Of a DNA stretch of 64,000 bases, positions 3,715-52,582 are shown one piece after another (position 1 is the stretch's first letter; every line of letters starts with the position of its first letter). The DNA lies in NCBI GenBank assembly GCA_965200095.1, contig OZ241350.1, positions 694,853-758,852 of the forward strand, written 5' to 3'. This stretch comes from Alphaproteobacteria bacterium (GTDB lineage Bacteria; Pseudomonadota; Alphaproteobacteria; UBA7887). Position numbers and translations under genes: made by a program. The notes under the pieces were generated by a model, which saw only the letters and a program-made list of their open reading frames with translations, was not told the origin of the DNA and made no database searches.

Positions 3715-4017
3715 ATGAGTGATGTTCCGGGCGGCGGCAAACGCGGGGCGGGGCCGGTGGCCACCGTAGGCGATGCAACGGAGAGTAACCGCGTGCAAAT
3801 CAAGGTGAACGGAGTCTCCGTCACGGTCACAGAGACCGTCTTGATACGCGAAATGCTGGAAGCGGCAAAAAACGAAGGTGCTATTGAAGGGTTGGTCAAA
3901 GAGTACGCCATTGAAAGGGTCAAGGAGGAAGGGGAAATCGGGATTGAGGAAATCATCACTGTGAAGGAGTTTGAGGAATTCTTGGCCGTGCCGACAGAAC
4001 CGACTCCGGTCGCATAG
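3715..4017 (+). CDS. small beta-grasp (ThiS/MoaD/ubiquitin-like) protein with acidic C-terminal extension (putative Ubl)
   Basis: 100 aa. The core IKVNGVSVTVTETVLIREML resembles the ThiS-type hxVNGxxhxhxxxxTlxxLL start of a beta-grasp. First gene of an operon with E2-like and JAB-E1 genes. Does not end in Gly-Gly, so processing would be needed. Confidence 0.4.
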   Translation: MSDVPGGGKRGAGPVATVGDATESNRVQIKVNGVSVTVTETVLIREMLEAAKNEGAIEGLVKEYAIERVKEEGEIGIEEIITVKEFEEFLAVPTEPTPVA

Positions 4018-4052
4018 CTAAATCGTAACTTCACGTGACCGGAGAAGGGTAC

Positions 4053-6921: not shown

Positions 6922-7010
6922 CGGTGCCGTCCTGAAACTTTTCTTGCACGGATGCTTGATGTCTGTCCAGCGGTTGTACGTTAGGGTGGTGGGTCGGCGC
7001 AATGATCGAT

Positions 7011-7865
7011 CTAGGCTCAGGACTCATAACCAGAATATGACGGTTGCGGCGATGCAGATGGCGCTGAAGAAGGTGTGCGCGCAGCGGTCGTATCGCGTGG
7101 CGATGCGTCGCCAGTCCTTGAGCCGACCGAACATGCGCTCAACGAGGTTGCGTTGCTTGTAAAGCCCGGCATCGCAGGCGACCGGCTTCTTGCGGTGCGC
7201 CCGTCCGGGGATGCAGGGGGCGATCCCGCGTCCCTCCAGGGCTTCGCGGAAGCGGTCGCTGTCGTAGCCCTTGTCGCCAATCGGGACATTCGCGTCCGGC
7301 GGCAAGGCGTTGAACATCATCGCGGCGCCGCGATGGTCGCTGACCTGCCCTTCGGTCAGCAGCATGATCGGGGGCTTGCCGTCGCCGTCGCAGACCGCGT
7401 GCAGTTTCGAGTTGAGGCCGCCCCGGGTGCGTCCGATACAGCGCGAAAGAGCCCCTTTTTTAGCAGACTGGCTGCGGTGCGGTGGGCCTTCAGATGGGTG
7501 GCGTCGATTATCACCGTCCCCGTTGCCCGGCCCTCCGCCGCCAGGGCCGCGAAGATGTGGTTGAACACGCCGGCCTCGCTCCACCGCACGAAGCGGTTGT
7601 AGAGGGTCTTGTGGGGACCGTATTCGGAGGGCGCGTGACGCCAGATGAGGCCGTATCGGATCACATGGATGATGCCGGAGATGACGCGCCGGTCATCGAC
7701 CCGGGGCACGCCGCGGACCTTGTTGGGCAGCAGCGGCCGGATGCGATCAAATTGGGTCTCGGAGAGCCAGAACTGGTGGTCGGACATGGTGCACCCCCTG
7801 TATCTGGTGGCAGCACACCACACATCCTAACCCAACGCAACCCCCTTTATGGGTCCTGAGCCTAG
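7011..7865 (-). mobile_element. IS5-family insertion sequence, copy 1 (IS427/IS1031-like subgroup)
   Basis: Terminal inverted repeats ggctcaggactcataa / ttatgggtcctgagcc, flanked by CTAG on both sides (4-bp TSD typical of IS5). Two overlapping transposase ORFs. Near-identical copies at 18075-18923 and 59834-60682. Confidence 0.85.
7024..7787 (-). CDS. IS5-family transposase OrfAB (programmed -1 frameshift at A6G within LLKKG)
   Basis: OrfA MSDHQFWLSETQFDRIRPLLP...HLKAHRTAASLLKKG and OrfB ...GDKGYDSDRFREALEGRGI...RNLVERMFGRLKDWRRIATRYDR (DDE) in overlapping frames. Confidence 0.8.
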
Positions 7866-8708: not shown

Positions 8709-8817
8709 TCCCGCACCGCACGGAGGTCTCGTCGTCCGCAACATTGCGGGACGATGCGCCGTCCCCTATGCTCCGCCATCGTCCGCCCCGTCGCGCGGGC
8801 TACGAACGGAGGCCGAC

Positions 8818-9196
8818 ATGGACCCGGACCTGGCAGGCTTCATCGGCCTTGCGGCGTTGATGGTGACGCTCGTGGCGTGGCTGCGCATCGACATGAACGG
8901 GCGCATGGACCGTCTCGAGACCGCACAGGGCGAGCGCCTGACGCGCATCGAGGCGACGCTGTCCGAACACGGCGCAACGCTGTCGGCGCACGGCGAACGC
9001 CTGATACGCATCGAGGCCACACAGCACGAGTTGCGCGAGCGTATGGACGGACTGGACGCCGAACTGCACGCCGCGCGGGCCGACCTGTCGCGCATCAACG
9101 AACGCATGGCGCACCGAAGGCACAGTGGCCGGGGCCCTCGGACGCCCCTTCCCGGAACTCATGACGCGCCCCGCGGACGCCGCAGCCGCCGAATAG
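8818..9196 (+). pseudogene. second tandem copy of the coiled-coil gene, contracted to 1-2 repeats and with a 3' frameshift
   Basis: Upstream region and N-terminus (MDPDLAGFIGLAALMVTLVAWL) duplicated from 7890-8000. Only 1-2 repeat units. A 1-bp difference (atggcgcgcaccgaagg versus atggcgcaccgaagg) shifts the frame, so the conserved C-terminus (TEGTVAGALGRPFPELMTRPADAAAAE) falls out of frame. Confidence 0.45.
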
Positions 9197-9403
9197 TCCC
9201 GCGCGGGGTCTGCGCGATACCTGTCCGCGACCTGCGCCATCACGCCCTCGCCTTCGAAACAGCGCCGCGTGTCCGTGGGCCGGAGTCGTCGTCAGCCCTT
9301 GCAGGTAATAGAGCGAGAGCGGCGGGTTGATGAGGAAGCCGAGCACCCCGGCGCCGACCAGATTCCAGAACGCCGCCGCCAGGAAGAATATCAGCGGCAG
9401 GTG

Positions 9404-9500
9404 ATAGCGCCGCGTCCGCCGCGTTCCTTTCCGTTCATCGCTTCCTCCCTGTCGGGCGTATGGTGGCGCAAGCCGCGCGCCGCGGCAACGGGCCGGCGAC
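9404..9500. repeat. right copy of the about 100-bp imperfect direct repeat; contains a degenerate cupin start (MNGKERGGRGA... then stop)
   Basis: See 3441-3540. The minus strand encodes only 15 aa of a cupin-like N-terminus before a stop. Confidence 0.5.
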
Positions 9501-9985: not shown

Positions 9986-12900
9986 ATGCCGAGAATCGAC
10001 CTTGTCATCCGTCGCATCCGCCGCGGCGGTTTCGCGGCCGCGCTCCTTGCGTCGCTTCTTCCCGCGTCCGACGGGGCGCATGCGCAAGCGGCGGCCTGCA
10101 CGCCGACGCAAACGGTCAGCGCGCAGGCGGACGCGAACGGCGTCTACACCACCACGCTGACCTGCGCGGACACTTCCGCGGCGGCGGGGGCGGCGGACTA
10201 CCGGCAGCTCCACTACAACCATGGCGCCGCATACGGGACGAACCCGGCCGACCGCGACGCGAACCTCGCGAACAACAACGCTTACAATAACCTGGCCCTC
10301 ACGATCGGGCGCGGCGTGATATTCACCGCCGACGGCTACAACGACAACAGGCTCACGGTCACGGACGGCGCCATCCTCCTGTGGAACGCCGGCGCCAAGA
10401 CCGTAACCATGGAGGACGGCGCCGTCATCAAGCTCGAACGGACGCCGGCCTACTGGACAGCGACGGATCCGGACCGCCCGATGTCCGCGACGCCCCAATA
10501 CGACCCGGCATGGTACCCGACCTGGCGGCACGCCCTGGACAACCTCGTCGGCATCGGCGCCTATTCGTATACCGGCGCGGACGGCGACGCGGACATCACG
10601 ATCGGGCACCACGGCGTCATCGACATCGACATCGACATCGGCGGCACCTACGGGAAGAACGGGTATTACGACGCCAGCGCCGGCCGCGCCATCGATGTGC
10701 AGGTAAAGGACACCGGCGGCGCCTCCGCCGCGCGCGCCGACCTCGACGTTCTCATCGAGATGGGGGCCACCGGCGTCATCCGGCATGTCGAGGGCTCCGA
10801 CGGCCTGAGCGGCATCTACGTGGAGAACTTCAGCGAGGAGGGAGACATCAGGATCGACCTGGCCGAAGGCTCGCTGATCGACGTCTCCGAAGGGGGCGGC
10901 TACGGCGTCACGGCGCTGCTTCGCAGGGACGCCGCCAACAACAACGGCCAGCGAACCGGCGACCTCATCGTCAACGCAGCCGGAACGATCAGGGCGGCCG
11001 CGAGGAGCCGGGTGCAAAGCTTCCAGCACGGCTACGGCATTTTCGCCGACCAGGGCGGACACACCGGCCGGGTTCGCGTCGTCTCGTCGGGAACCATCGA
11101 GACCGTGCAGGGCCCCGCCATCGACGCGAGGGCATGGAGAAGCACCCAGACGCACCGCGACGACCCCGACACCGCGGAGATCGAAGGGCACATCGTCGAC
11201 GTAACGGCCGGGACGATGGAGACCCGGGGGACCACCGCCGTCTACGCCTCCACCGGCAGCGCCAACTCCCACATGACGGTCCGGGTGGCGGAGGGCGCCA
11301 CCGTCCGCGCCCAGGCGCTCACGGACGAGGACTATGCGAACGGCGCCCTCACGCAGGAAACCCTGGGGGCCGACGGAAGCCCATACATCATTTCCGGCAT
11401 CTACCGCTATCACGGATGGCGGAGAGTGGACGTGGAGCAGACGACCGACAGCGGCGCGACCGTGACGGTGAAGCGGCTGGAGCCGATCATTACCGGCATC
11501 GCGGTCCGCGATTTCTCGTCGAGTCCCAACGCCGACGGCTTGAGGGACCAGGTGCTCGTCGACGGGACTGTCGAAACGGTCGGCGGCAAGGCCGGCGTGG
11601 ACCCCGCCATCTGGCTGGAGAGCGGCGGGCTGGTTACCGTCGGGGCGAACGGGCGCGTCAGCGCGGACTCCGGCATTGCGATTTCGGGCGGGTGCTTCAC
11701 CGATTACCGCAAGGTCGATTTCGTCAACATAGATTCGCCGGTCGATTGCGACACGGCAGCGCCCCGCACCCTCGAGGTGAGGGTGGCCGGGACGGTCGAA
11801 GGCGACATCCGCGTGCTCGACGACGGCGTCCTGAATTTCAGGTCGATGGAAGGCGGGACGGTCGCGGGCACGGTGCACGACCCCGCCGGCCCGCTGACGG
11901 TGGCGGGCAGCGTCGGGCGTCTGCTTTACACCGACGGCGGCGCGGTGACGGTGACAGGCACGGGGCGCCTCACCGGCGTCGACGGCGTGGCGTTGCGCAG
12001 CGAGTCGGGCGATCTGAGCCTGACCGTTGCCGACAAGGGCGTGGTTACGGGCGATGTCCAGGCGCGCGGCGGCGGCCGGCTGATGCTGGATGTGAGGGAA
12101 GGCGGGACGATTTCGGGAACGGCGCACGACCCCGTTGGCCCGTTGACGGTGGCCGGCAGCATTGGACGCCTTCTCTACACGTCCGGCGGCGCGGTGACGG
12201 TGACGGGCACGGGGCGTCTCACCGGCGTCGACGGCGTGGCGTTGCGCAGCGAGTCGGGCGATCTGAGCCTGACCGTTGCCGGCATGGGCGTGGTTGCGGG
12301 CGATGTCCAGGCGCGCGGCGGCGGCAAACTGACGCTGGATGTGAGGGAAGGCGGGACGATTTCGGGAACGGCGCACGACCCCGTTGGCCCGTTGACGGTG
12401 GCCGGCAGCATCGGGCGTCTGCTTTACACCGACGGCGGCGCGGTGACGGTGACGGGCGCGGGGCGTCTCACCGGCGTCGACGGCGTGGCGTTGCGCAGCG
12501 AGTCGGGCGATCTGAGCCTGACGGTGGCCGGCATGGGCATGGTTACGGGCGATGTCCAGGCGCGCGGGGGCGGCCGGCTGACCCTGGACCTGAAGGAAGG
12601 CGGGACGATTTCGGGGACGGTGCACGACCCCGCCGGCCCGCTGACGGTGGCCGGGAGCATCGGGCGGGTGCTCTACAGTTCGGGCGGCGCGGTGACGGTG
12701 ACGGGCGCGGGGCGCCTCACCGGCGTCGATGGCGTGGCGTTGCGCAGCGAGTCGGGCGATTTGAGCCTGACCGTTGCCGACAAGGGCATGGTGACCGGCG
12801 ATGTCCGGGCGCGCGGGGGCGGCCGGTTGACCCTGGACCTGAAGGAAGGCGGGACGATTTCGGGGACGGTGCATGACCCCGTCGGCCCGCTGACGGTGGC

Positions 12901-14737
12901 GGGCAGCATTGGACGCCTCCTCTATGCCGACGGCGCCGCGGTAACGGTGACGGACACGGGGCGCCTCACCGGCGTGGATGGCGTGGCGCTGCGCAGCGAC
13001 GCCGGCGACATCGACCTGACGGTGGCCGGCCTGGCGACGGGCGACATCGACGCGCGCGGCGACGGCGACCTGACGGTCGCGGTGTCGGGGACGGTCGACG
13101 GCGACATTTTCGGGCGCGGCGCGGGCGAACACACAGTGACGGTGGCGCGCGGCGGCGCGGTAACCGGGACCGTGGACCTCGGCGCGAGCACTGTGACGAC
13201 GGACGGCGCCGTGGGGCGGGTTCGTTTCGAGCGCGGCGGCGCGGCGACGGTAGGTTCGACGGGCCGGATTTCCGGTATCGACGGCGTCGCGGTCGACAGC
13301 CGTTCGGGCGACCTGACGGTGACGGTGGCCGGCCTGGCGATGGGCGACATCGACGGGCGCGGCGGCGGCGACCTGACGGTCATGGTGTCGGGTAGGGTCG
13401 ACGGCGATGTCTTCGGACGCGAAGCCGGCGAACACGAGGTGACGGTGGCGCGCGGCGGCGCGATAACCGGGACCGTCGACCTTGCCGGCGACGGCGCTGT
13501 GACGGTGGAGGGCATGGCGGGGAGGATTGACTTCGAGCGCGACGGCGCCGTGACGGTGGGGCCGGAGGGCCGCATCTCCGGCAGAGACGGCGTGTCGATA
13601 GAGAGCCGTTCGGGCGCCCCGGCGGTGACCATCGTGGCGTCGGCGGGCGAGTCGCTGCGCGATGCGGTGGGGCGCGTCGGCGGGGCGATCGTCGCAGCCG
13701 AGGGCGAGCCTTCGGTGATGCTCGGCCGCGAGGGCGAGACGGGGTCGATAACGCTCGGCGGGCTCGGAACGGCGCGCTCGATCCCCGAAGGCGCCTACGA
13801 TGTGGGCGTGGTGCGCACGGCGTCGGGCGCGTTGCGCGCGGTGAGCCGGCTGGCGGCGCGCACCCGCGTCTACGAGGCTCTGCCGTCGCTGCTTCTGGGG
13901 ATGGAGCGCACGGCGTCGCACGCCGACCGTGCGGCGGCGCCCCGCGCGTCGGACGGGACGTGGGCGCGCGTCGATGCGTCGCGGGGGTCGTGGGAGGCGG
14001 CGAGTTCGGCCAATGCGGGGACCGGCTACGACCGTCGCGGTTTCTCGTTCCAGGCCGGCCTGGACGCGGTCCTGAGCGAGGAGACGCGCGCGGGTCTGTC
14101 GGTCCACTGGCGCCGGGCGACGGCGGAGGTGTCGCGCAACGGCGGCGAGATCGAGGCCCGGGGCGCGGGCGTGGGTCTGTCGGCAACATGGTCTCCGGGG
14201 CCGTTCTTCGTGGACGGCCAGGCGGCGGCGACGCTCTACGATGCGGACCTGAAATCGACGCTGCGCGGGAGGCTGAAGGACGATGTCGGGGCGCAGGGCC
14301 TTTCGGCGGCGCTGGAGGCGGGGCGCACGGTTCCCGTGGCCGAGGGCGTTACGGTGACGCCGCGGGCGCGGGTGGCCTGGTCGTCGCTGTCGCTTTCGGG
14401 CTTCGTCGACGACGCGGCGGGGGCGCGGGTGTCTCTGGACCGGGGCCGGAGTTTGACCGGTCGCGCCGGGGCGCTGGCGGAGCGCGTCCTGGGCGAAGGG
14501 GGCCGCATCTTCGGCTCGGTGGATGTGGAGCGCGAGTTCTCGGCGGAGACGCGGATGTCGGTCGCGGGGACATCGCTGGAGACGGCGGGCGAGGAGACGC
14601 GCTATATGGTCGGGGTCGGCGGCGAGCATGGCTGGGAGGATGGCCGCTTCGCGCTGCGCGGCGCGCTGGACTATGCGATGTCCGGCGGCGATGCGCGCGA
14701 CTACGGTGCCCGCGCCAGCCTCTCGATGCGCTTCTGA
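9986..14737 (+). CDS. autotransporter (type Va) adhesin-like protein with repetitive passenger domain
   Basis: ATG 9986 followed by signal peptide MPRIDLVIRRIRRGGFAAALLASLLPASDGAHAQAA. Gly/Thr/Val-rich beta-helix-like passenger. C-terminal roughly 270-aa autotransporter beta-barrel ending ...YGARASLSMRF (terminal aromatic). Confidence 0.85.
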   Translation: MPRIDLVIRRIRRGGFAAALLASLLPASDGAHAQAAACTPTQTVSAQADANGVYTTTLTCADTSAAAGAADYRQLHYNHGAAYGTNPADRDANLANNNAYNNLALTIGRGVIFTADGYNDNRLTVTDGAILLWNAGAKTVTMEDGAVIKLERTPAYWTATDPDRPMSATPQYDPAWYPTWRHALDNLVGIGAYSYTGADGDADITIGHHGVIDIDIDIGGTYGKNGYYDASAGRAIDVQVKDTGGASAARADLDVLIEMGATGVIRHVEGSDGLSGIYVENFSEEGDIRIDLAEGSLIDVSEGGGYGVTALLRRDAANNNGQRTGDLIVNAAGTIRAAARSRVQSFQHGYGIFADQGGHTGRVRVVSSGTIETVQGPAIDARAWRSTQTHRDDPDTAEIEGHIVDVTAGTMETRGTTAVYASTGSANSHMTVRVAEGATVRAQALTDEDYANGALTQETLGADGSPYIISGIYRYHGWRRVDVEQTTDSGATVTVKRLEPIITGIAVRDFSSSPNADGLRDQVLVDGTVETVGGKAGVDPAIWLESGGLVTVGANGRVSADSGIAISGGCFTDYRKVDFVNIDSPVDCDTAAPRTLEVRVAGTVEGDIRVLDDGVLNFRSMEGGTVAGTVHDPAGPLTVAGSVGRLLYTDGGAVTVTGTGRLTGVDGVALRSESGDLSLTVADKGVVTGDVQARGGGRLMLDVREGGTISGTAHDPVGPLTVAGSIGRLLYTSGGAVTVTGTGRLTGVDGVALRSESGDLSLTVAGMGVVAGDVQARGGGKLTLDVREGGTISGTAHDPVGPLTVAGSIGRLLYTDGGAVTVTGAGRLTGVDGVALRSESGDLSLTVAGMGMVTGDVQARGGGRLTLDLKEGGTISGTVHDPAGPLTVAGSIGRVLYSSGGAVTVTGAGRLTGVDGVALRSESGDLSLTVADKGMVTGDVRARGGGRLTLDLKEGGTISGTVHDPVGPLTVAGSIGRLLYADGAAVTVTDTGRLTGVDGVALRSDAGDIDLTVAGLATGDIDARGDGDLTVAVSGTVDGDIFGRGAGEHTVTVARGGAVTGTVDLGASTVTTDGAVGRVRFERGGAATVGSTGRISGIDGVAVDSRSGDLTVTVAGLAMGDIDGRGGGDLTVMVSGRVDGDVFGREAGEHEVTVARGGAITGTVDLAGDGAVTVEGMAGRIDFERDGAVTVGPEGRISGRDGVSIESRSGAPAVTIVASAGESLRDAVGRVGGAIVAAEGEPSVMLGREGETGSITLGGLGTARSIPEGAYDVGVVRTASGALRAVSRLAARTRVYEALPSLLLGMERTASHADRAAAPRASDGTWARVDASRGSWEAASSANAGTGYDRRGFSFQAGLDAVLSEETRAGLSVHWRRATAEVSRNGGEIEARGAGVGLSATWSPGPFFVDGQAAATLYDADLKSTLRGRLKDDVGAQGLSAALEAGRTVPVAEGVTVTPRARVAWSSLSLSGFVDDAAGARVSLDRGRSLTGRAGALAERVLGEGGRIFGSVDVEREFSAETRMSVAGTSLETAGEETRYMVGVGGEHGWEDGRFALRGALDYAMSGGDARDYGARASLSMRF
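11852..13030. repeat. 249-bp (83-aa) tandem repeats, about 4.7 copies, inside the autotransporter passenger domain
   Basis: Unit GGTISGTAHDPVGPLTVAGSIGRLLYTDGGAVTVTGTGRLTGVDGVALRSESGDLSLTVAGMGVVTGDVQARGGGRLTLDVRE starts at 11852, 12101, 12350, 12599 and 12848. Antisense ORFs of 237 nt recur every 249 nt. Confidence 0.8.
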
Positions 14738-14937
14738 CCGCCGCCGTTGCGTCATATCCGGGGTTTCGCGTCGGCCGGCGGGCGCGCCGACCGCCATGAC
14801 GGGAACCGGCGGCGCGAAAAGGTCGACGCGGCCTGCGGCGCCTGTTCGTCGGCGGCGCCATGACGGCGGTTCGCCACGCCGTTCGCCGAAGAACCGAAAG
14901 AGTATGAGAAGCCCGGGCTAATTCTCAACGTCTGCGC

Positions 14938-16188
14938 TTATAGCCGCGTCCGTCCAGGCCAGTACGCCGAGACATCGAATTCAAACAACTCTTTTTTTGA
15001 ATTACGCTTCCGAATGGCCCTGCATTTAATATTCTCAAATTCCAAACGTTCCAGCATCGCAGCGTATATCTGCTCTACGGGCAGTAACACGTCATAAAAT
15101 TTGGAATTCCCGACAATATAATGCAATTCGGCGCTGTCGTTCAACATTGGAATCAGTGAGTTGAAGTGCTTCCACATATCCTCGATATATTTCGCTACAT
15201 AGTTCGCCAATATCTTTCCACTCTTGTTATCGCTGCGCGCTATTCCGTCCAACGCGGTATCGATCATCGGATGTCCGAACGCCCCCGGCGGACGTTCCCA
15301 GTCCCCCAACCTGCTGGTTGCAATGCCCCATGTGCCGCCTATCGCCGACCAGTCCAGCTCGCCGGCATCCCGGCTATTTTGTAGAAAACCAAGCCAGTAC
15401 ATATACGGTCGCAGCTCACGGATATACGACATCCGGTTCGCATATGGCGGAGACGTAATCACCAGATCGAAAAACCCTTCCACGCACTTCGGTAACATTC
15501 TCGCGTCCCCGAATACGACGTGGCTCATTCCCTCCGGGCTTTCTTCCGCACCTCCCAATACGACTCGCACGTCTTCGCGAAATACGTCGCCCATATCGAT
15601 CTCGAACGGGATATACAATTGATCATCATACTTAAAGGACATCGACTGGTGGTTGAAGGCCGCGTTAGACAGTGCGATCAGAGTTCTGCAGAATGCCACC
15701 AGCAGCAGATCGCGTTCCGGAGATTTCGGTTCGCTCTCCACCTCAATGCCGGCCTTGAGTTTGCAAAGAAATTCCAAAGCATCCGGACGCCACCACCTCT
15801 CGATATTGCGAATAGGAGGGGCCGCCGCGGCGCCAACCGTTCCCCGCTTTACAACTCCGATGATCCGGTCGCATGCGCTGCGAACTGCGTCTATCGCGGC
15901 TCCAGTGTATCGTGTCGTCTTCGCCCGACCGAACCAAATCAGGAACGGATTGATATCCGTTGTCACCCCTTCGTGTCCATGATACGCAGCACTTAACGCT
16001 GTTGTCGCTGTTCCGCAGAATGGGTCCAAAACTCTTAACGGCTGCTCATGCCGCTCCGTCAATTCCTCGACCATCTTGACGGAGTATGCCGGTGTGAGCC
16101 GCAGCCAGCCATGACGCCCGATGTTCGTGTTGAACTTATGCGTGTAGTCGGCTCTCTGTCGCAGCTTTTCGCCATGAACCACGCTCAT
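14938..16188 (-). CDS. DNA methyltransferase (N6-adenine/N4-cytosine amino-MTase, SPPY motif)
   Basis: 416 aa. Motif I-like VLDPFCGTATTA near the N-terminus and motif IV LVITSPPYANR in the middle. Low GC. ATGA overlap with the downstream gene. Confidence 0.8.
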   Translation of the reverse strand: MSVVHGEKLRQRADYTHKFNTNIGRHGWLRLTPAYSVKMVEELTERHEQPLRVLDPFCGTATTALSAAYHGHEGVTTDINPFLIWFGRAKTTRYTGAAIDAVRSACDRIIGVVKRGTVGAAAAPPIRNIERWWRPDALEFLCKLKAGIEVESEPKSPERDLLLVAFCRTLIALSNAAFNHQSMSFKYDDQLYIPFEIDMGDVFREDVRVVLGGAEESPEGMSHVVFGDARMLPKCVEGFFDLVITSPPYANRMSYIRELRPYMYWLGFLQNSRDAGELDWSAIGGTWGIATSRLGDWERPPGAFGHPMIDTALDGIARSDNKSGKILANYVAKYIEDMWKHFNSLIPMLNDSAELHYIVGNSKFYDVLLPVEQIYAAMLERLEFENIKCRAIRKRNSKKELFEFDVSAYWPGRTRL

Positions 16189-16874
16189 GTCGCCTCCGGA
16201 GACAAAAGAACGTTCAGAACTGTATCTATTTCTTGACGGAGAATGGATCTGTTCCGCTCAAAAAACGCCGCCAAATCATATCCAACGACGTCGCGCATGA
16301 AATCATAGGTCGATATCGAGGGATCTCCCGCACCCATGACCCCGGTGATAACCGACCATTTTTCAGAGCGATATCGCATCAATATATCCCCGTCGATTTG
16401 CCCCGACAAAATCACGGCGCAAGGGAGGTAACCCTTCGTATAAGCTGTGGCTGCGTTTGCGATATCCGCATTCTGCCGCTTGGAATCTTTGCTCTTGTAT
16501 CCCTGTCGCACTTCAAAAACCGCGCCCGTCAACCCCTCTAGAACATCATCGTCAACGTCCAGCATCTTCGCGGAGTTACGCATCCATCGATGAAACGAAT
16601 TTCGCTTGTCGTTATCACCGATTCTTTCGAGAGGAACTCGGCCGTCCATATACAATGTCCGCTTCCGGCCGCTCGTCGATGTTACCCGATACGACCAAAT
16701 CACGTCTTTCTCAGACAGCCCCAGAAAATCTTTTATGGCGCGGCGAAAGACTTTTTCGCAGCCAATCCCGATCTGGCGATAAATGCTTGTCATTCCGCCC
16801 GCTGCCCTGTGGGCGGCGTACATCATGGGATTGTCCAGGCCGAACCAGCTGTAGAAAACGTCTTTTCGATACAT
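16185..16874 (-). CDS. putative type II restriction endonuclease (partner of the MTase)
   Basis: 229-aa low-GC ORF immediately upstream of the MTase, translationally coupled (ATGA), with a good SD (AGGAG). No recognisable family. Call rests on operon context and a possible PD-(D/E)xK-like DVDDDVLEGLTGAVFEVRQGYK. Confidence 0.45.
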   Translation of the reverse strand: MYRKDVFYSWFGLDNPMMYAAHRAAGGMTSIYRQIGIGCEKVFRRAIKDFLGLSEKDVIWSYRVTSTSGRKRTLYMDGRVPLERIGDNDKRNSFHRWMRNSAKMLDVDDDVLEGLTGAVFEVRQGYKSKDSKRQNADIANAATAYTKGYLPCAVILSGQIDGDILMRYRSEKWSVITGVMGAGDPSISTYDFMRDVVGYDLAAFFERNRSILRQEIDTVLNVLLSPEAT

Positions 16875-16889
16875 CTCCTGGAATTGGTT

Positions 16890-18072
16890 TAGTGTCCCGC
16901 TTCTGAAGTTCGCATGATAATGTGTGTGATTATGTGGCTTGTGTGGAGGTCATGGGATGGGGCGTCGTGCGGGTCGGCCGGTTGCGTCCGTGGTGTTGAG
17001 CGACGAAGAGCGGTCGTATCTTGAGCGCCGGGTTCGCGGTCGTCGCGTTGGGCGTGCGCTTGCGGAGCGTTGCCGCATCGTCCTGCGTTGCGCCGATGGT
17101 TTGACGAACAAGGCGGTTGCTGCGGAAGTCGGCGTGCATGAACACACTGTCGGCAAGTGGCGTCGTCGTTTCCTGAAGGATCGCGTTGAGGGGTTGTCGG
17201 ACGCACCGCGTTCGGGGCGTCCGCGCAGCATAGAAGACGCCCGGGTGGCCGAGGTTGTCCGGCGGACGCTCGACGCGTCGCCGGTCGACGCCACCCATTG
17301 GTCGATCCGCTCGATGGCCCGGGAAGTGGGGCTTTCCCCGGCGTCGGTGCAACGGATCTGGAAGGCGTTCGGTCTGCAACCGCACCGGTCGGAGACGTTC
17401 AAGCTTTCCGGCGACCCGCAGTTCGTGGACAAGGCGCCGACATTGTCGGCCTCTATCTGTCGCCGCCGGATCGCGCGCCGGTGCTCTGCGTCGACGAAAA
17501 GAGCCGGATACAGGCGCTCGACCGCACCCGGCCCGTCCTGCCCATGACGCCGGGCATGGCCGAGAGGCGAACCCACGACTATCGGCGCAACGGGACGACC
17601 TCGCTGTTCGCCGCCCTCGACATCGCCACCGGTTTCGTTATCGGCAAGTGCTACAGGCGTTATCGGTCCCGGGAGTTCCTCTCCTTCCTCAAGGAAATCG
17701 ACGCCCATGTTCCCGATGACCTCGATATTCACATCGTCATGGACAACTACGCCACCCACAAGACCGCAGCGGTGAAATCCTGGATGGCGCGGCGTCCGCG
17801 CTATCGTGTTCACTTCACGCCGACCTCGGCGTCCTGGATCAATCGGGTGGAACGCCGGTTCGCCGAACTGACGCGCAAGCAGCTGCAAAGGGGCGCGCAT
17901 AACTCGACGAAACAGCTTGAAGCGGATATCCGCTCTTTTATCGACAAGCACAACCGGAACCCCAAACCCTTCAGGTGGACGAAATCCGCCGACGACATCC
18001 TCGCATCCGTCAAGCGCTTCTGCCATCGCGTCGAGCATACCCTATGCCACGAACTTTAGAGGCAGGACACTA
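16890..18072 (+). mobile_element. IS630-family insertion sequence, copy A
   Basis: 22-bp terminal IRs tagtgtcccgcttctgaagttcgc / rc tagtgtcctgcctctaaagttcgt, flanked by TA. Transposase in two overlapping frames. Identical copy inverted at 60684-61867. Confidence 0.85.
16939..18059 (+). CDS. IS630-family transposase (two overlapping frames, frameshift or pseudogene)
   Basis: N-terminal HTH (VGVHEHTVGKWRRRF) and a C-terminal DDE domain (HIVMDNYATHK ... SWINRVERRF). Confidence 0.8.
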
Positions 18073-39935: not shown

Positions 39936-40530
39936 GCGCGCCTCCCGGGTTCCACGACTGGAAAGCGCACCCTAACACGGTCGCCCGGCCGGCGCGCCCC
40001 GGCTTTCGCCGCCGGGAGGCCGCCGGTCAGCCGTTGGGGCGCGACCAGCCGTGCCAGGCTTGTCCCGGCCTCCCCCGCGACGGCGGCTGCGGGTCGGCGC
40101 CGAGTCCGAAGCCGCCGGACACCTTTTCGAGTTCCGAGTCGCCGATTTCGGACGACGCGCGAGGGGCTTTTTCGGACGTCTCTTCCTGCGGCTTCCGCTG
40201 CTTCGATTCGCTCATGACCCGGTATCCTCTTCTTCGTTGCTTGCGTCTTATCGCACGAACGGCGCGAAAAGTCAACGCTTCGGCGGGCCTCGACGCGAAT
40301 CGCGCGGTCATGGACTTCGGCGATGTCGGCGCGCAATCCCGCCGACCCGGCTTCGATCCCGGCCATACGTAGCGCGGATCGGCGATGTCCGCGCGCGGCG
40401 GCCCGGAACGGCGAATACCCCTTTACGCCGCAGCCGGCGACGGGCATAATCCGCTCATGATCCAGGTCCGGTCGGCAAACTGCCGGAGCGACCGCGACGC
40501 CATGCGCCGCTGCGGCAACCGTGTGACGGC

Positions 40531-41406
40531 GTGAGGGCGCGGGCGAAACTGTTCCGCGCCGCGGGAAGAGGCGGCGCCGCGGACGTAAGAGCCGCGCTCA
40601 GAGCGGGCGCGAACCCGAACGCACGCCTCGACTCCGGTGTGACGCCGCTTCACGCGGCGGCGATGCAGAACGACAACCCGGCGGTTGTCGAGGCGCTGCT
40701 CGAGGGCGGCGCCGACCCGAACGCGCGCTCCGAAAGCGGCTGGACGCCGCTTCATGGAGCCGCGGCGAAGAACGCGAATCCCGCGGTCGTCGCAGCGCTG
40801 GCCGAAGCGGGGGCCGACCCGAACGCATCCTTCGAAGGCGGCTGGACGCCGCTTCATGCGGCGGTGATGAGAAACGGCGAGCCGATGATCGTGACGGCGC
40901 TGCTCAAGGCCGGGGCCGACCCGAACGCGCGCTCCGAAAACGGCTGGACGCCGCTTCATGCGGCGGTGGTGGAGAACTGCGCCCTCCCCATCATCGTCGC
41001 GTTGCTCGAATATGGCGCGAATCCGAACGCAGACGCCAAACACGGCTGGACGCCGGTTCATGCGGCGGCGGCGGAACACGCGGACCCGGAGGTCGTCTCG
41101 GCGCTGCTGGAAGCCGGCGCCGACCCGGACGTTCGGTCCGAGCAGGACGCGACGCCGGTTCATGCGGCGTCGTGGAACGACAATGCGGCGGTTGTCTCGG
41201 CGCTGCTCGAAGGCGGCGGCGACCCGAACGCACGCGCCGAGTCGGGCCTGACGCCGCTTCACGTGGCGGCGGGAAAGAACCGCAATCCGGCGGTGGCGAT
41301 GGCGCTGATTAAAGCCGGCGCCGACCCGGCGGCCCGCGACGAAGACGGCAACCTGCCCTTCGCCCCCCGCTCGCGCGACCGGAAACCGTCCGCTCGAAAA
41401 AAATAG
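40531..41406 (+). CDS. ankyrin-repeat protein (8 repeats)
   Basis: Repeated GxTPLHxAAxxNxNPAVVxALLxAGADPNAR units. Apparent GTG start; no ATG upstream in frame. Confidence 0.8.
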   Translation: MRARAKLFRAAGRGGAADVRAALRAGANPNARLDSGVTPLHAAAMQNDNPAVVEALLEGGADPNARSESGWTPLHGAAAKNANPAVVAALAEAGADPNASFEGGWTPLHAAVMRNGEPMIVTALLKAGADPNARSENGWTPLHAAVVENCALPIIVALLEYGANPNADAKHGWTPVHAAAAEHADPEVVSALLEAGADPDVRSEQDATPVHAASWNDNAAVVSALLEGGGDPNARAESGLTPLHVAAGKNRNPAVAMALIKAGADPAARDEDGNLPFAPRSRDRKPSARKK

Positions 41407-41559
41407 AGATGCCGATCGGCGCACGAACGGAATCCGGTTCGGGCAACGCCGCGGGACGGCGGGCGCGCGCCTTTCTCGTTTCGCCGCGAAACTCGTGAAC
41501 TGCGATAACCGCCGCGCGCCGGGCGGCCGACAAGGGCGGATACCGGATGAGCCCCCTTC

Positions 41560-42750
41560 GCCGTCATGGTCCGCCGGCGGCTGTCGTTTCGATACCGTGA
41601 GATCTCTGCATAACTCGTTTCGCCTGTGGCAGAATCGCGTTCCCGGCGCTTTGCGACGTTTCCGAACCCGCCGTCGGCGTATGACGATGCGTGACGGAAT
41701 TGGGAACATCTGCCCCCTGCCCCGGTAATTCCCGCGAAAGAGCATGTGAAGAAATCGAACAGCGTTACAAACACTCGTCATTCCCGCGAAAGCGGGAATC
41801 TCTTTGCGGCGTTTCCGTAAGAAAAACCGCGCCGATATTGCGGACGGCCGCCTCCGGATTCCCGCTTTCGCGGGAATGACGAAGAGTAGAGGCGTCTCGC
41901 GACTTTTTCACGCCCGCCTTCGAGCGCGTAGAGAAGTCCAACGTCTCTCACTGCGATGGTCGGAGCACCGGAAAAACGGCGCCGTGGGAGACGACAACCC
42001 TCCGGCAATACTTCGTCATTCCCGCTTTCCAGCTTGTGAAGAAATCGCGCGCCTCTCATCGTGACGGACGGATCGCCGAGGCGCCGGTATTGCAAAAGAA
42101 AATACCCATCGAATAATACTTCGTCGTTCCCGCGAAAGAGCGTGTGAAAAAATCGCGCAGATTTACAAATACTCGTCATTCCCGCGAAAGCGGGAATCCG
42201 TTGCGGCGTTTCCGTAAGAAAAACCGCGCCGATATTGCGGACGGCCGCCTCTGGATTCCCGCTTTCGCGGGAATGACAAAGTATTATTCGGTGGGTATTT
42301 TCTTTTGCAATACCGACACCTCGGCGATCCGTCCGTCACGATGAGATCCGCCCGATTTCTTCACATGCTCGAAAGCGGGAATCCAGAACGGCCGCCCGAA
42401 AGACTCGCCGGTGTTTTTCTTGCGGAAACGCCGCAACAGATTCCCGCTTTCGCGGGAATGACGAGTATTTATACGGCTGTCCGATTTCTTCACATGCTCT
42501 TTCGCGGGAAGGGCGAAGTATTATTCGGCGGTCTTGTCTTTACAATACCGATACTTCGGCGGTCCGTCCGTCACGATGAGAGCCGTCCGATTTCTTCACG
42601 CGCTCTTTCGCGGGAAAGAGAGAAGGCGGATTTTCGCAATTCCATCGGGCATCGTTATGCTCCGCCGGTGAGTTCGGGAGCGTCGCAAAACCGCGGAACC
42701 GCGATCCTGCCGCAGGCGAAACCGGTTATGCAGAGGTCTCACCGTGCGTT
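41560..42750. repeat. second cluster of REP/MITE-like hairpin repeats
   Basis: At least five copies of gtcattcccgcgaaagcgggaatc...gattcccgctttcgcgggaatgac units and associated modules. Confidence 0.6.
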
Positions 42751-42855
42751 CTCGCTTGACATCGGCGGTGAACTCGGCGAAAGAGCGCTGCGCCGTGGAT
42801 GATTCGGACGCGGCAGGAACGTGAGAAACCGCATCGCGCCTCCGGGAGCGCGCCT

Positions 42856-43212
42856 ATGACGCAAGCCGAACGCGAGGCGGCGGCTCGACGGGCTCGTTAT
42901 GTGGGCAGCCCCGAGCACAAGAACGCCAGGTGGTGGGGCGGATTGCCTGAGGCGGGAGCCCGGGGGCCAAGGCTCACCACCATTTGTCGCATGACCTCCG
43001 ACAAGGACAGACGGACGGCGACGGCCTGGTTGAGACAGGCCATTCGTTCCGGACAATACAAATTCGTGCGCGGAGACCTGGATTTCCCCAAACATGTCTG
43101 GTACAGGGATGAAACCGGCAAGGTATGGTGCGGTAGATGCATCAATCGCGAGTTGGGCACGTATAAGGGTTGGCCCATAGAGGAGGCGGAGCGGCATGGA
43201 ATTTTCGATTGA
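42856..43212 (+). CDS. hypothetical small protein (118 aa)
   Basis: ATG 42856. The product carries a Cys/His-rich segment GKVWCGRCINRELG. Overlaps the next ORF by 17 nt. Confidence 0.4.
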   Translation: MTQAEREAAARRARYVGSPEHKNARWWGGLPEAGARGPRLTTICRMTSDKDRRTATAWLRQAIRSGQYKFVRGDLDFPKHVWYRDETGKVWCGRCINRELGTYKGWPIEEAERHGIFD

Positions 43213-44449
43213 CTGGGAAGGCGGCGATCGGAGCTCCGACGATATTGACCTGCTTGCCGCCGGCGCATTGCGCGTTGTTGTCGACCGGGCAAACGTTTGC
43301 GAGTTTCGCGAAGCTTGGGACGGCAAGGCCGGGGAAGCGCTTCCGGTTTCGATCTACCCTCTCGCCGAGGGGGTCGCGATGGACTGGTGGCGCCTGTTCG
43401 GGGGCCGCGACGCGCAATTCCGCGCCGCCGTGCATCGCGGCGGTTACGCGATGCCGGACATCCGCCTGGAGTTCGACGGCGTCGGGTTCGAGGTCGCGTG
43501 TCAGCCCTGTCGCTATGAGAACCCGCCGGTATATTTTCCGAACGGCGCTGCGGAACGTCTGGAGCGGAAGGACGCCGAACGCGCCCTGGGCGCGTTTCTC
43601 ACCGGCGTCATCGGCCGGCTCAAAGAGCGCGGAGTCCGGGATTCGGGGCTGCAACAACAGTGGCGCCTCGTGCAGGCGTCGCGCGAGGACCCGGAGGAAA
43701 CGGCGCTTTGCGAAGCGGCGGGAGCGCTCGGCCTGGACGCCTACGACATGTCGGACGCCGACGCGGCGTTCATTGAGGACAGCCGCGCGCTGTTCGACGG
43801 GGAGGCGCTGGCGGAATTCCTCTCGGGCCTGCGGCGCGGCCGCTGGCGAAAGGCGGCGGTGGAGTCGATACGGGGCCTGGAAAGCCGCCCCCGTTACAAG
43901 TCCCGACTACCGGGGATCGAGAGTCTGCGGGCCGCCGCGCCCGGCGACTCCGGAGCCCAAAAGCGGAAACCCTGGGAGCCCGGTTACCGATGGGCGCGCG
44001 AGGCGCGACGGATGCTCGACGCTCCCCAGAGCGAACGCTTCCGGTCGGTTACCGTCCTGGCGCGGCGCCTAGGCGCGACGGGTTTCAAGCTTGCGCCGCT
44101 GGCGCCCGGGGTCAGCGCGCTCGTGGAGACTGTCGATGACGAAGCCCGCGTTCATTTGCGCCGGTTGGAAAACCGACCCGCCAGGCTGTTCGCCTTCGCC
44201 CGCGCGATCGGCGATGCGGTCGCGAATCCCCCGACCCGCCGGTCGGCGGTGAACTCTCTCCACCGTGCGTCGCGCCAGGCCTGCGGGCGCGCGTTCGCGG
44301 CGGAGTTTCTGGCGCCCATCGACGAAATTCTCTCCATGCGCAATGACGGCCTGGATACCGACGCCGTGGCGGACGAATTCGGGGTCTCCGCCGAACTGGT
44401 GGAGCAGCAGGAGGAAAACGCCGACCGTATCCGCGAGGCCTGCGCGTAA
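43196..44449 (+). CDS. hypothetical protein (417 aa)
   Basis: ATG 43196; continuous high-GC coding frame; no recognisable motifs. Confidence 0.5.
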   Translation: MEFSIDWEGGDRSSDDIDLLAAGALRVVVDRANVCEFREAWDGKAGEALPVSIYPLAEGVAMDWWRLFGGRDAQFRAAVHRGGYAMPDIRLEFDGVGFEVACQPCRYENPPVYFPNGAAERLERKDAERALGAFLTGVIGRLKERGVRDSGLQQQWRLVQASREDPEETALCEAAGALGLDAYDMSDADAAFIEDSRALFDGEALAEFLSGLRRGRWRKAAVESIRGLESRPRYKSRLPGIESLRAAAPGDSGAQKRKPWEPGYRWAREARRMLDAPQSERFRSVTVLARRLGATGFKLAPLAPGVSALVETVDDEARVHLRRLENRPARLFAFARAIGDAVANPPTRRSAVNSLHRASRQACGRAFAAEFLAPIDEILSMRNDGLDTDAVADEFGVSAELVEQQEENADRIREACA

Positions 44450-49939: not shown

Positions 49940-50070
49940 CGGCAGGTTCCCTTCGTCATCGGTGTGAAATAGATACGGTGGGGAGCTACGAATTGCGAGT
50001 CGGGCAGCATTCTACCGGCAACACCCATAACGCCATCGAACGGCTTTCCGCAGCGGCTCGCCGCCATTGC

Positions 50071-52374
50071 TCAGTCCGAAATATTTCTACAACGCTGTAT
50101 AACGGCATCCTCGTTTGCACTTGGAGCCATCAAAATTCGTCCAACCCTCTTCTTATGACTGCGACATGGCCGCCATATGGTGTTTCTTCTCGACTTATCT
50201 GGAAGCACAAAACCTTCCGACTGAAGAGACTGCAACACACGAGGAACCAGCCGTCGCGCGCGACTGTCCAATCCTCTATACAAGGCATTCTCCCTGCGCC
50301 CCGACCCGGTTTGCATGTATAGCTTTCTCAATATGGTTAGGCACACCCGAATCCCCAAAGGAAGATCAAGCGCTAGCATCTGAGATATAGTATCCGTCGC
50401 TTTATTGAATTTGCCGATTTCGCATTTGGCGTCAAATTTCTCGGCAGGAAGATCCAATCTGGATACGGGACCTTCCATTTCATCGATCATGCATTCTTCA
50501 AAAGATGGCATTCTAGCGATATCGACATCCGACTCAATCTCCACACGGGAGAAAAAACAGTCGGCATACCGCAATTTTGACAAATTAGACCTAGAATCTC
50601 CAAATTCAAGATCAGCTATGAAAAGGCCGCTCAGTTTTATATCTTTCTGGATGCTGCAATCATTCTCCAGCATCAACCTTGCTATATCTGACGCCATGTA
50701 ATTGGCGCCACACTTATACGCCTCCGCAAGTGCTGTATTAATCTTACCCTCTCCAAAACCTTCGGCCTTCACCTTACGAGAGGCCACACCGATACCAAGA
50801 GGGCCCATTGAACTCTCGATATCCTCCAAAACGGACAGCGGGAAATTGAATGGATCATGTATAAACGTCAGAAGATCTCCGGATCTACACGCATCGGCAA
50901 AAGACTCATCAATGAAAGTCCGAGAATTTTCCTCCTCGCGATCAACACCAAGACCCGGGAGGCGCTGAAGGAGAACTAAGCCTCGCTCGTCCGGACTGTA
51001 TCCGCAGACACTCTTAAACGCCTGAATCACCGAATCCTGACTAATCGATCCAAGTCCCATGTGCGAGGATCGGGCTTTTGTTGCTAGGCGTTCAAGAATT
51101 TTCCTCACCGTGCTTCCATCAATTCCTGCCTCGATCTCCGCCTCGCGATCTGCAATGCTATCCAATAGAGTATCCCAGCCATCTTCTGGACTCTTGGGGC
51201 TATCCGTAGATTCTTTATCAAGAAAAACATTCAAAAACCCTTTAGCGGCTAAGTATCCCACAAGCAACGGCCTAGTGGGAAGCCAAGACGGAACCGATCC
51301 GACAAGTCCCACACGCCTTAGGTATGTGCCAATTTGATCATCGGTAAATTCAGTGAGAGATAGTTCGATAGACTCCTGTGAGAGGCCAAGAGACTCGTGT
51401 CTCTCGCCGGAATTATCAAAAAAATGAGCTCGCCCCGCAATTAATAATCCGGATCCTTTGGGATGCTCGCGAACTAGACGTCGAACTGCTTCCATCGCCC
51501 GATAGCGATTGTCTCGAAGATTATGCCATGATCCCTGAATGGGGATCGTAGAAATCTCATCAAAACCATCTATCAACAGGTGAACATATCCAGCCCGCCA
51601 TGCTCGGACGAGATGAGATGGCTGATCAAAGCCAATCGATGTCGCATGTCTTATAATAACTTCTGCACTGTCCCGCTGTCCGTAATGATCTCGAAGGTTG
51701 AGATAGACGGGGAATTTATGCGTCATACCTCTCAAATGATCTTCCTTAAATCTGTAGTACATTTCCCGAAGTGTCATGCTCTTGCCAGCACCATAATCCC
51801 CCAAGAGAACCACGGTTTTCCCCTCAGAGATCGCGGATCGGAGTTTGCTTCGGGGGAATGCTTCCTTAGACTTTATGTCCAACAAATCAATCGGAACGTA
51901 TTTGATATCTGCGCCATTTACGCTGTGCTTTCCGGTCGCCGGATCACGAACACTGCCAAAGGAGTATGCGTCTCTTGTGCTGAGATAGCCTCTTGAATTT
52001 ATGAGCCGCGATTGAAATTGCGAGAACGATAATGTATTTATATCTTGGCGATATTTTTCCGCGACTTTGCGCTGATCGGCGGTGGGTTCGTCAAGTGTGA
52101 TAAACCACCCTTTGACCGCACGGTCACTACTTTTCCTCCGACGGCGCTGCACCAATTTGGATATCTTCGATATGTCATGTAGCGCCTTATCTTTTTTTCG
52201 AGATGTCGTTGCTTCAACTATATGAATGCAATCTTCCGTTTCGAATATACCGTCCGTTTCTCGCCCATCCACCATCGCGGCACCAAAAAATTCAGCGCTT
52301 GGCCATAGTGATCTAGCGATACGTCGAACCTCATGTTCGAAATTTTCGCCCTCATATCCGATTCCGTTTGCCAT
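50071..52374 (-). CDS. NACHT-family STAND NTPase with N-terminal PD-(D/E)xK-like nuclease domain (bacterial NLR-like, candidate antiphage protein)
   Basis: Low-GC gene. N-terminal TDGIFETEDCIHIVEATTSRKKDK (D...ExK). Walker A TVVLLGDYGAGKSMTL. NACHT Walker B signature VHLLIDGFDE. Long C-terminal helical/repeat region. ATG 52374 has an AGAGGG SD; alternative start at 52518. Confidence 0.7.
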   Translation of the reverse strand: MANGIGYEGENFEHEVRRIARSLWPSAEFFGAAMVDGRETDGIFETEDCIHIVEATTSRKKDKALHDISKISKLVQRRRRKSSDRAVKGWFITLDEPTADQRKVAEKYRQDINTLSFSQFQSRLINSRGYLSTRDAYSFGSVRDPATGKHSVNGADIKYVPIDLLDIKSKEAFPRSKLRSAISEGKTVVLLGDYGAGKSMTLREMYYRFKEDHLRGMTHKFPVYLNLRDHYGQRDSAEVIIRHATSIGFDQPSHLVRAWRAGYVHLLIDGFDEISTIPIQGSWHNLRDNRYRAMEAVRRLVREHPKGSGLLIAGRAHFFDNSGERHESLGLSQESIELSLTEFTDDQIGTYLRRVGLVGSVPSWLPTRPLLVGYLAAKGFLNVFLDKESTDSPKSPEDGWDTLLDSIADREAEIEAGIDGSTVRKILERLATKARSSHMGLGSISQDSVIQAFKSVCGYSPDERGLVLLQRLPGLGVDREEENSRTFIDESFADACRSGDLLTFIHDPFNFPLSVLEDIESSMGPLGIGVASRKVKAEGFGEGKINTALAEAYKCGANYMASDIARLMLENDCSIQKDIKLSGLFIADLEFGDSRSNLSKLRYADCFFSRVEIESDVDIARMPSFEECMIDEMEGPVSRLDLPAEKFDAKCEIGKFNKATDTISQMLALDLPLGIRVCLTILRKLYMQTGSGRRENALYRGLDSRARRLVPRVLQSLQSEGFVLPDKSRRNTIWRPCRSHKKRVGRILMAPSANEDAVIQRCRNISD

Positions 52375-52582
52375 TTTGCCCTCTACATTCGCAACATGAT
52401 GCGGGCGCAGTGCCACTCCGGCATGCGCCGTGATGGTAGAGAGGCTTTTGCGTGCCGCATTTCGGATGTACGCATGCCAATCTGGGGCTGTCTCGGTTGA
52501 TATCAGGCATTGGAGCACATCCTCGCATCTTGGTCAACCCTCTTTCGCGCGTGCGCCCGGAATTCAGGGCTGCGACCATGCG

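Follow-up and report, generated by a model that had tools for sequence, protein, structure and literature searches.

A gene on the minus strand at positions 50071–52374 of a 64,000-nucleotide stretch of an Alphaproteobacteria bacterium genome (hereafter, the window; GTDB lineage UBA7887, GenBank assembly GCA_965200095.1, contig OZ241350.1, positions 694,853–758,852 of the forward strand) is probably an anti-phage gene of the bNACHT kind that stands alone and was acquired horizontally; by analogy with bNACHT25/32, it would act through nuclease-driven abortive infection. The open reading frame (ORF) comprises 767 amino acids (aa) and a stop codon. From N to C terminus, its product consists of a restriction endonuclease (REase)-like domain, a linker, a NACHT module, a helical domain, a beta-solenoid, and a winged helix. 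Several observations carry this reading: the domain folds, the NACHT signatures, the conservation of a constellation of residues resembling a metal site, the foreign base composition of the gene, the lack of any partner gene, and, for the family, a neighborhood of defense islands. Together with its relatives, the protein constitutes a separate, predicted-defense family within the already known REase+NACHT kind. All features of the gene given below lie on the minus strand.

The central module is a true NACHT rather than a nucleoside triphosphatase (NTPase) of the KAP or generic AAA+ type. Pfam NACHT (PF05729) matched aa 187–355 (51310–51816) with a score of 46.4 bits (cut-off 26.7), and matched all 53 aligned members of the family. 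Residue conservation was counted over 67 relatives with 26–71% identity. The Walker A motif (51778–51801; G192-D-Y-G-A-G-K198-S199) satisfies the pattern GxxxxGK[ST], with G192 kept in 65 of the 67 relatives and G195, G197, K198, and S199 in every one. Equally invariant are D269, G270, D272, and E273 of Walker B (HLLIDGFDE, 51556–51582), which is followed by an invariant R315. An earlier sequence-only reading of the window had quoted VLLGDYGAGKSMTL as Walker A, HLLIDGFDE as Walker B, and a further peptide, DGIFETEDCIHIVEATTSRKK. All are present, and they are not there by chance: the Walker A and Walker B residues named above are conserved as stated in the 67 relatives. D269-G-F-D272-E273 conforms to the D[GAS]hDE Walker B signature that sets NACHT proteins apart from other signal transduction ATPases with numerous domains (STANDs) (Kibby et al.).

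An AlphaFold model built from 53 homologues (predicted local distance difference test (pLDDT) 81.6, predicted template modeling score (pTM) 0.70) completed this assignment. Here, the P-loop domain is followed by the helical and winged-helix parts of a STAND module (aa 356–488, 50911–51309), with NLRs (nucleotide-binding proteins with leucine-rich repeats) as the closest structures. In a Foldseek search against solved structures, the best matches were NLRP7 (1.4e-10), NOD2, NLRP3, NAIP5, and Avs3; behind the animal NLRs, the structural ranking placed ORC/Cdc6/DnaA (scores of 10–11), Avs5 (10.3), Apaf-like DARK and plant NRC2 (9.2), Avs3 (9.0), and Avs4 (8.8). In the family sequence alignment, aa 396–488 held no invariant His from which the conserved winged-helix His that contacts ADP (equivalent to NLRC4 H443) could be read by sequence. 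The proposal of a NACHT STAND NTPase was therefore upheld by both the Pfam score and the structural matches, and the outcome that would have spoken against it, a KAP- or AAA-type housekeeping NTPase with no predicted nuclease fold, was not what was found.

N-terminal to this module, aa 5–125 (52000–52362) adopt the alpha-beta-beta-beta-alpha-beta core of the PD-(D/E)xK fold in the model, and structural matches of the domain include lower but clear scores to NgoMIV, SduA, McrC, HamA, Cap4, NucC, Card1, and Hjc. Its putative active-site core spans aa 41–63 (D41...E54-A-T56...K63; 52186–52254) and is rounded off by E13 (52336–52338). The acidic positions are E13 on helix 1 (kept in 65 of 67 relatives), D41 on strand 2 (66 of 67), and E54 on strand 3 (67 of 67). 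At the canonical Lys position stands T56, with 66 Thr and a single Ser among the 67, and the xK element of the fold's signature is absent. Lysines K60, K61, and K63 come after E54-A-T56; K63, where the second core helix (aa 61–81) begins, is found in all 67 relatives, D67 in 65, and K70 in 65, with Arg in the other 2. The sequence-only claim of a nuclease domain with a D...E.K motif thus stands in part: a nuclease fold is predicted and D41 and E54 are in place, but the motif reads D41...E54-A-T56, and no literal E-x-K occurs in the N-terminal segment. In a hand alignment, FokI D450...D467-T-K469 presumably corresponds to D41...E54-A-T56, so that the Lys of FokI would be a Thr here. At the level of sequence, no relationship was seen between the family and cleavage domains of the FokI or N.BspD6I type.

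Because the Thr at the Lys position is invariant, nuclease activity is something we infer, not something evident from the motif. A "PD-EXX-K" variant in which the Lys is relocated to the second core helix has been recorded for Pa4535 (PMC3424549). For the window family, a putatively active site with such a relocated Lys is favored over a dead one, since the three carboxylates and K63 are strictly conserved and no other effector-type domain is present in the protein. The linker that follows (aa 126–186, 51817–51999) carries a conserved Y130, R134, and FGSVRDP motif in the alignment, with low pLDDT around aa 140–160. When a profile of the N-terminal domain was searched against 1.84 billion representative proteins, 449 matches were obtained, 363 of them with E ≤1e-10. 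Among the best 150 of the 449, the domain was nearly always the N terminus of proteins of 750–785 aa or of their fragments, which indicates that it is specific to this architecture. The only unusual fusion, a 1007-aa protein (P0170), carries the family REase domain (aa 7–121) together with fn3, polysaccharide lyase, and Ig-like domains and without a NACHT domain; in all likelihood it is a chimera produced by assembly or gene calling.

The region beyond the NACHT module had been described as a sensor of roughly 450 aa. That span includes the helical and winged-helix parts of the module itself, and only about 280 aa (489–767) remain, mostly with pLDDT >85. They begin with a five-helix domain (aa 489–575, 50650–50910; pLDDT >90), which has the highest column entropy (2.44) and is a candidate recognition surface. 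It is followed by a short beta-solenoid (aa 576–657, 50404–50649), recognized from strand pairs in the model, with 3–4 repeats of 22–23 aa. A Cys ladder (C606, C628, and C651) runs through the solenoid in the register L.F.DC.F / LP.F..C.I / LP..F..C. Its likeness to pentapeptide repeats is weak: the family C-terminal profile gave as its best PDB match the pentapeptide repeat protein 2w7z on the beta segment, with an E value of only 0.35; Pentapeptide_4 was matched by 1 of 25 members (E 0.087); and the repeats are 22–23 aa long, not 20. Other than this weak match, PDB sequence searches with the whole protein and with family profiles returned nothing past the P-loop. TPR, LRR, HEAT, WD40, and FGE-sulfatase repeats were not found in the post-NACHT region.

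The protein ends in a winged-helix-like domain with a tail (aa 658–767 and the stop codon, 50071–50403), in which helix-helix-helix-hairpin (aa 658–750) is modeled with pLDDT >80. Because neither Pfam nor PDB gave a sequence match for this domain, its assignment is a model-based one. It contains a highly conserved patch, LTILKKLY.Q.GSGRKE.AL.RGLD. Across the protein, column entropy was highest in the helical and beta segments (2.4), compared with 1.66 in the NTPase, 1.72 in the NACHT winged helix, 1.85 in the REase domain, and 1.86 in the C-terminal winged helix, where it falls to 1.09 over aa 681–700.

The ORF is intact and, in its longest form, runs from a GTG at 52518 (minus strand, 50071–52518). 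In the family alignment, the Met that begins all homologues corresponds to the ATG at 52374, and a Shine-Dalgarno-like GAGGG (52379–52383), read from the sequence, lies 4 nt upstream of it. On both grounds, the ATG at 52374 was taken as the correct start, and the coordinates 50071–52374 first assigned to the gene were retained.

The gene is the sole content of an AT-rich islet of about 2.6 kb (49940–52582), bounded by the drop in GC content and reaching from the start of a dppA-like SBP_bac_5 gene to the stop of a GT9 heptosyltransferase gene. GC content is 0.46–0.50 over 50000–52500 and 0.67–0.77 on either side; the gene itself has 0.476, as against 0.690 in the remainder of the window, in keeping with what the first reading had said of its AT-richness. 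Spacers of 131 bp and 208 bp flank the gene within the islet. Downstream and co-directional are the SBP_bac_5 solute-binding protein and two ABC_tran/oligo_HPY ATPases of a dpp/opp-type transporter; upstream are the Glyco_transf_9 heptosyltransferase and a HisKA/HATPase kinase. These Pfam assignments agree with the proposed position between a dpp operon and a lipopolysaccharide (LPS) heptosyltransferase. The GC contrast supports a foreign origin, and the gene is taken to be a recent foreign insertion, separate from the adjoining dpp and LPS functions. A tRNA scan and the ORF list showed neither a tRNA nor an integrase ORF in the islet, a search for flanking direct or inverted repeats gave nothing beyond 10-nt chance matches, and promoter and terminator scans performed no better than on shuffled sequences. 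For an empty-site comparison, 80 metagenome loci with relatives of the flanking heptosyltransferase were inspected, of which the best was 62% identical and none kept the histidine kinase or dppA neighbors; the insertion was thus neither dated nor confirmed by synteny.

Homologues of the gene are numerous and widely scattered. A word-indexed search gave 1262 matches, the best 120 of which were all full length (about 760 aa, 49–99% identity) and named at most "NACHT domain-containing protein." The exact window protein had no entry in the contig index. In GTDB, with one genome per species, 79 loci were found, in Acidobacteriota, Actinomycetota, Planctomycetota, Alpha-, Beta-, and Gammaproteobacteria, Spirochaetia, Nitrospira, Bacteroidota, Chloroflexi, Gemmatimonadota, and Verrucomicrobiota. 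Actinomycete carriers include Streptomyces, Kitasatospora, Saccharothrix, and Leifsonia; the homologue of Streptomyces venezuelae ATCC 10712 (CP192597.1; locus L052, 10001–12250) is full length and 39% identical. The gene was AT-richer than its flanks at all 65 loci with usable flanks (mean −0.11, largest −0.28), and this AT-richness is a family-wide mark of lateral movement. A divergent alphaproteobacterial subgroup with 26–31% identity (L073, L074, L077, and L078, from Tistlia, Methylocella, Nisaea, and an alphaproteobacterial metagenome-assembled genome) retains D41, E54, T/S56, K63, and D67, has a largely different C-terminal region, and shows gene-to-flank GC gaps among the largest, up to −0.28.

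A partner gene was sought by clustering ORFs within 4 kb at 82 loci. No cluster occurred at more than 5 loci, and the top cluster consisted mostly of fragments of the NACHT gene; because no neighbor is conserved across the 82 loci, a multi-gene system was rejected in favor of a single-gene one. A phage-borne origin was likewise rejected: relatives were present on just 2 of 2.9 million viral contigs, at 39% identity, and the gene is accordingly not mainly a prophage gene.

The genomic setting was judged from 11 homologues on long contigs, with Pfam-annotated neighbors within a reach of 10 kb. Defense or mobile genes were found within that distance in 9 of the 11 contexts. In one, a PIN toxin and a type I/IIG restriction–modification (R-M) system directly adjoin the homologue; two carry between them MazE-PIN, an MNT-type toxin–antitoxin (TA) system, and AAA_14/DUF4143; one has Mrr_N, HNH, an MmeI-like methyltransferase, and a DEAD+MZB helicase; and one has TrwC, a transposase, an MmeI-like enzyme, and an integrase. 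AbiEi/AbiEii stand immediately upstream of the homologue in another, and a MAD7/NERD-kinase system in yet another; HsdR with DUF499-HEPN, and TrwB with a relaxase and IS21, were found in one context each. At the scale of gene families, 100 ORFs within 5 kb of homologues at 21 GTDB loci matched 262 PADLOC families at E ≤1e-5, including type I and IIG R-M, DrmA/DrmD, BrxH, DpdF, and MADS parts, compared with 8 families for 100 likewise-called ORFs around an unrelated heptosyltransferase gene, a large contrast that is nonetheless to be read qualitatively because the control is a crude one, drawn from different, partly redundant loci with shorter ORFs and fewer residues. The family is usually situated among R-M, TA, Abi, DISARM, MADS, or integrative and conjugative element genes, and a defense-type setting is thus borne out at the family level.

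Two details of these contexts were also noted. At L085 and L087, the homologue has an AAA_14/DUF4143 ATPase gene (12579–13727 and 13440–14621, respectively) a short distance downstream, with a MazE-PIN pair upstream in both cases; since the two loci look related, this linkage does not count as independent evidence. At L084, the context of P0029, the NACHT homologue is preceded upstream, at a distance of about 570 bp, by a gene for 215 aa (8785–9432) that weakly matches the DnaJ domain. It is a single case, not seen at the other loci, and is noteworthy only because bNACHT25 requires host DnaJ (PMC12169576).

The nearest functional analogue is provided by bNACHT25/32 of Escherichia coli, assigned to clade 6 by Kibby et al. 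and encoded by single genes for proteins of about 750 aa with a PD-(D/E)xK DNase, a NACHT domain, and a short helical NCH1 domain. E. coli cells carrying them are protected from T2, T4, T6, lambda, and MS2; DNA degradation is set off by infection or by the coat protein of MS2; the nuclease substitution D48A abolishes both defense and the toxicity of an NLR-type activating mutant; and sensing runs via host DnaJ. Theirs is the only kind backed by direct evidence. The window protein resembles them in being the product of a single gene of similar length, with an N-terminal REase fold, a linker of about 60–80 aa, a NACHT module, and a short non-repeat C terminus. When the first 399 aa of bNACHT25 were compared with the window protein, however, only the NTPase core aligned (aa 177–355; BLASTP 24% identity over 112 aa, E 2e-7; hhalign probability 67%), the REase domains did not align, and membership in the bNACHT25/32 family was rejected. 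The two also differ in the active-site motif, which is E-x-T...K in the window protein, and in the C terminus, where a helical domain, a beta-solenoid, and a winged helix take the place of the helical NCH1.

The larger proteins of clade 11 in Kibby et al. (1100–1900 aa) have the core [effector]-(NA-)iREase-NACHT-Pentapeptide-beta-propeller/WD40. Like the window family, they place a REase fold directly before NACHT; about 100 aa behind NACHT they have a pentapeptide-type stretch, and the window family shows weak NA-iREase1 and pentapeptide signals at the matching positions. Clade 11 proteins differ in having an additional effector at the N terminus (TIR, caspase, PNPase, calcineurin-like, and others) and, as a sensor, a large beta-propeller, neither of which the window family has. 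In addition, their REase module is annotated as inactive, whereas that of the window family forms the extreme N terminus and keeps its acidic residues. On these similarities, the window family may be a minimal clade-11 relative in which the REase is still the effector; because all of the Pfam signals fall below cut-off, this kinship is a lead and not a result.

Comparison with other STAND proteins placed the family apart from the Avs systems. Avs3 and Avs4 (AVAST) combine a nuclease, a STAND NTPase, and a TPR-like sensor in proteins of 1500–2000 aa, whose very large sensors bind terminase or portal; their NTPase lies outside the NACHT clade, and animal NLRs are structurally closer to the window protein than is any Avs. 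With the animal NLRs (NLRP3, NOD2, and NAIP5/NLRC4), the protein shares the D-G-h-D-E Walker B motif and the order of nucleotide-binding, helical, and winged-helix domains, at a sequence identity of 11–15%; in the NLRs, death-fold adaptors pass on the signal and LRRs do the sensing, whereas the window protein has an enzyme-like N terminus and no LRR. Accordingly, of the architectural match to Avs/bNACHT proteins initially suggested, the bNACHT part holds, with bNACHT25/32 as the analogue, and the Avs part does not, nor was any PADLOC model matched. The suggestion that the domain combination might be undescribed does not hold for the architecture as such: REase+NACHT and Mrr_cat+NACHT proteins of about 700–740 aa are listed for several clades in Table S1 of Kibby et al., and bNACHT25/32 have been shown to defend. 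A genus-name search of that table revealed no clear member of the family, which means little because only representatives are tabulated. According to Lee et al. (2026), prokaryotes have 589 STAND clades, of which 198 are defense-associated; one more uncharacterized STAND clade would in itself be no surprise.

By analogy with bNACHT25/32 and with the general STAND scheme, the following mechanism is proposed. At rest, the protein would be a nucleotide-bound, auto-inhibited monomer. An infection cue would be read by the C-terminal region, through its variable helical and beta-solenoid part and possibly also the conserved winged helix, and would free the NACHT switch for NTP-dependent oligomerization. 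FokI-like domains need pairing. Oligomerization of the window protein may likewise bring its N-terminal REase-like domains together as active nuclease units; these would cut DNA without sequence specificity, sacrificing the cell to stop the phage, as in abortive infection.

Several findings weigh against reading the gene in this way. Its neighbors in the window are plain housekeeping genes, and those in 2 of the 11 annotated contexts (L001 and L084) are purely so, while the PADLOC control is a crude one. The window protein had no significant match among PADLOC-DB 2.0 models, a check that the first reading had called for (the best, mad8 at E 0.015, covers the P-loop only), and nothing among NCBIfam models came near cut-off. 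The post-NACHT region is short and in part very conserved, unlike the large, fast-evolving Avs sensors. Finally, an invariant Thr replaces the canonical catalytic Lys, and the sole Pfam match of the window protein's N-terminal domain, which by sequence comes close to an orphan, is to NA-iREase1, at 13.4 bits and far under the cut-off of 27 (E 0.081, profile positions 57–102). These last two points suit an explanation that sees in the N-terminal domain a catalytically dead REase fold, comparable to the clade-11 iREase, serving as a DNA-binding or scaffold part of a protein that has no enzymatic effector of its own and that would either recruit host factors or use its REase-like and winged-helix domains to occlude DNA. 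Sub-threshold matches among 53 members are in line with this (NA-iREase1 in 10, with a best E value of 0.0068, and NA-iREase3 in 2), as is the order iREase, NACHT, Pentapeptide in clade 11, given the weakly pentapeptide-like solenoid in the corresponding place here. Yet every NA-iREase1 match is below the Pfam cut-off, and active families were matched equally weakly: Mrr_cat in 2 members (0.0042) and Card1_endonuc in 4; in the relative P0267, Card1_endonuc was reached at 3.2e-4. Clade-11 proteins, moreover, have a separate effector upstream of the iREase, and the window family has none. Dead REase domains are expected to lose the acidic residues of their metal site, whereas here the three acidic positions and K63 are conserved down to 26% identity. 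We consider a dead domain unlikely.

The conserved winged helix raises a different explanation, namely an NTP-dependent restriction-type enzyme following McrBC, Mrr, or type IV logic, in which DNA that is foreign or modified would be bound by the winged helix, NACHT would assemble there, and the REase would cut. Both terminal domains are of DNA-handling kinds, R-M and Mrr_N/HNH genes are frequent neighbors, and the winged-helix patch (aa 681–700) is as conserved as the NTPase, which is more readily understood if the ligand is constant, as DNA is, than if it is a fast-evolving protein of a phage. Against this, the winged helix is known from the model and matched no DNA-binding family by sequence, the variable helical and solenoid segment resembles an evolving recognition surface, and every NACHT/STAND defense protein considered here for which a trigger is reported responds to proteins of the phage or to effects exerted on those of the host; such an enzyme is quite unlikely. 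Also improbable, and somewhat more so, is that the family is an active, minimal, ancestor-like form of the clade-11 iREase-NACHT-pentapeptide core, with an unusual E...D...E-x-T...K site and with nucleic acid, not a phage protein, sensed through the C-terminal winged helix; were it so, the protein would be a DNA-sensing bacterial NLR. The winged helix could, in addition, be the DNA-binding output of a non-defense STAND regulator, a MalT/AfsR-type transcription factor that is only incidentally mobile. Metabolic and housekeeping neighbors in the window, L001, and L084 would fit, and defense and non-defense STAND clades are interspersed (Lee et al.). This is very improbable: no neighbor or target operon is conserved across 82 loci, the phyla are scattered and GC is below that of the host at 65 of 65 loci, 9 of 11 annotated contexts are defense or mobile islands, and a conserved REase-type site would have no role in a regulator. 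A nuclease-driven anti-phage gene, for which we infer the trigger and the defense phenotype from the bNACHT analogy, is thus the reading we retain as probable.

Elsewhere in the window, two further AT-rich islets were observed. One extends over 4000–7500, with GC down to 0.47, and contains a 520-aa ThiF-family (E1-like) ORF at 4334–5896(+) (Pfam 2.2e-33) and, overlapping or adjoining it, a DUF2971 ORF at 5782–6921(+) (1.4e-7); it may be a further acquired module. Another, at 14900–17100 with GC of about 0.53, may be an R-M remnant: the ORF at 14938–16188(−) gave weak DNA-methyltransferase signals (UPF0020, 9.3e-5; N6_N4_Mtase, 1.4e-4), and the ORF at 16185–16874(−) had no Pfam match. Between 40423 and 44449, a run of ORFs had no Pfam match (40423–41781(−), 41778–42179(−), 42305–42802(+), 42799–43212(+), and the 417-aa ORF 43196–44449(+)), and GC dips to 0.58 at 42–43 kb.

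The gene and its homologues add a compact, widespread, predicted family, with about 360 clusters at 50% identity (N-terminal profile, E ≤1e-10) in at least 8 phyla, to the NLR-related defense proteins of bacteria. Its point of interest is the invariant Thr-for-Lys variant of a restriction-nuclease site. As a small NLR-like protein without a repeat-type sensor, ending in a very conserved winged helix, it also raises the question of what is sensed. Possible kinship with the "inactive REase" module of larger NACHT proteins, if true, would show an effector turning into a structural part. The presence of a homologue in S. venezuelae ATCC 10712, a genetically tractable strain, makes the family testable in practice.

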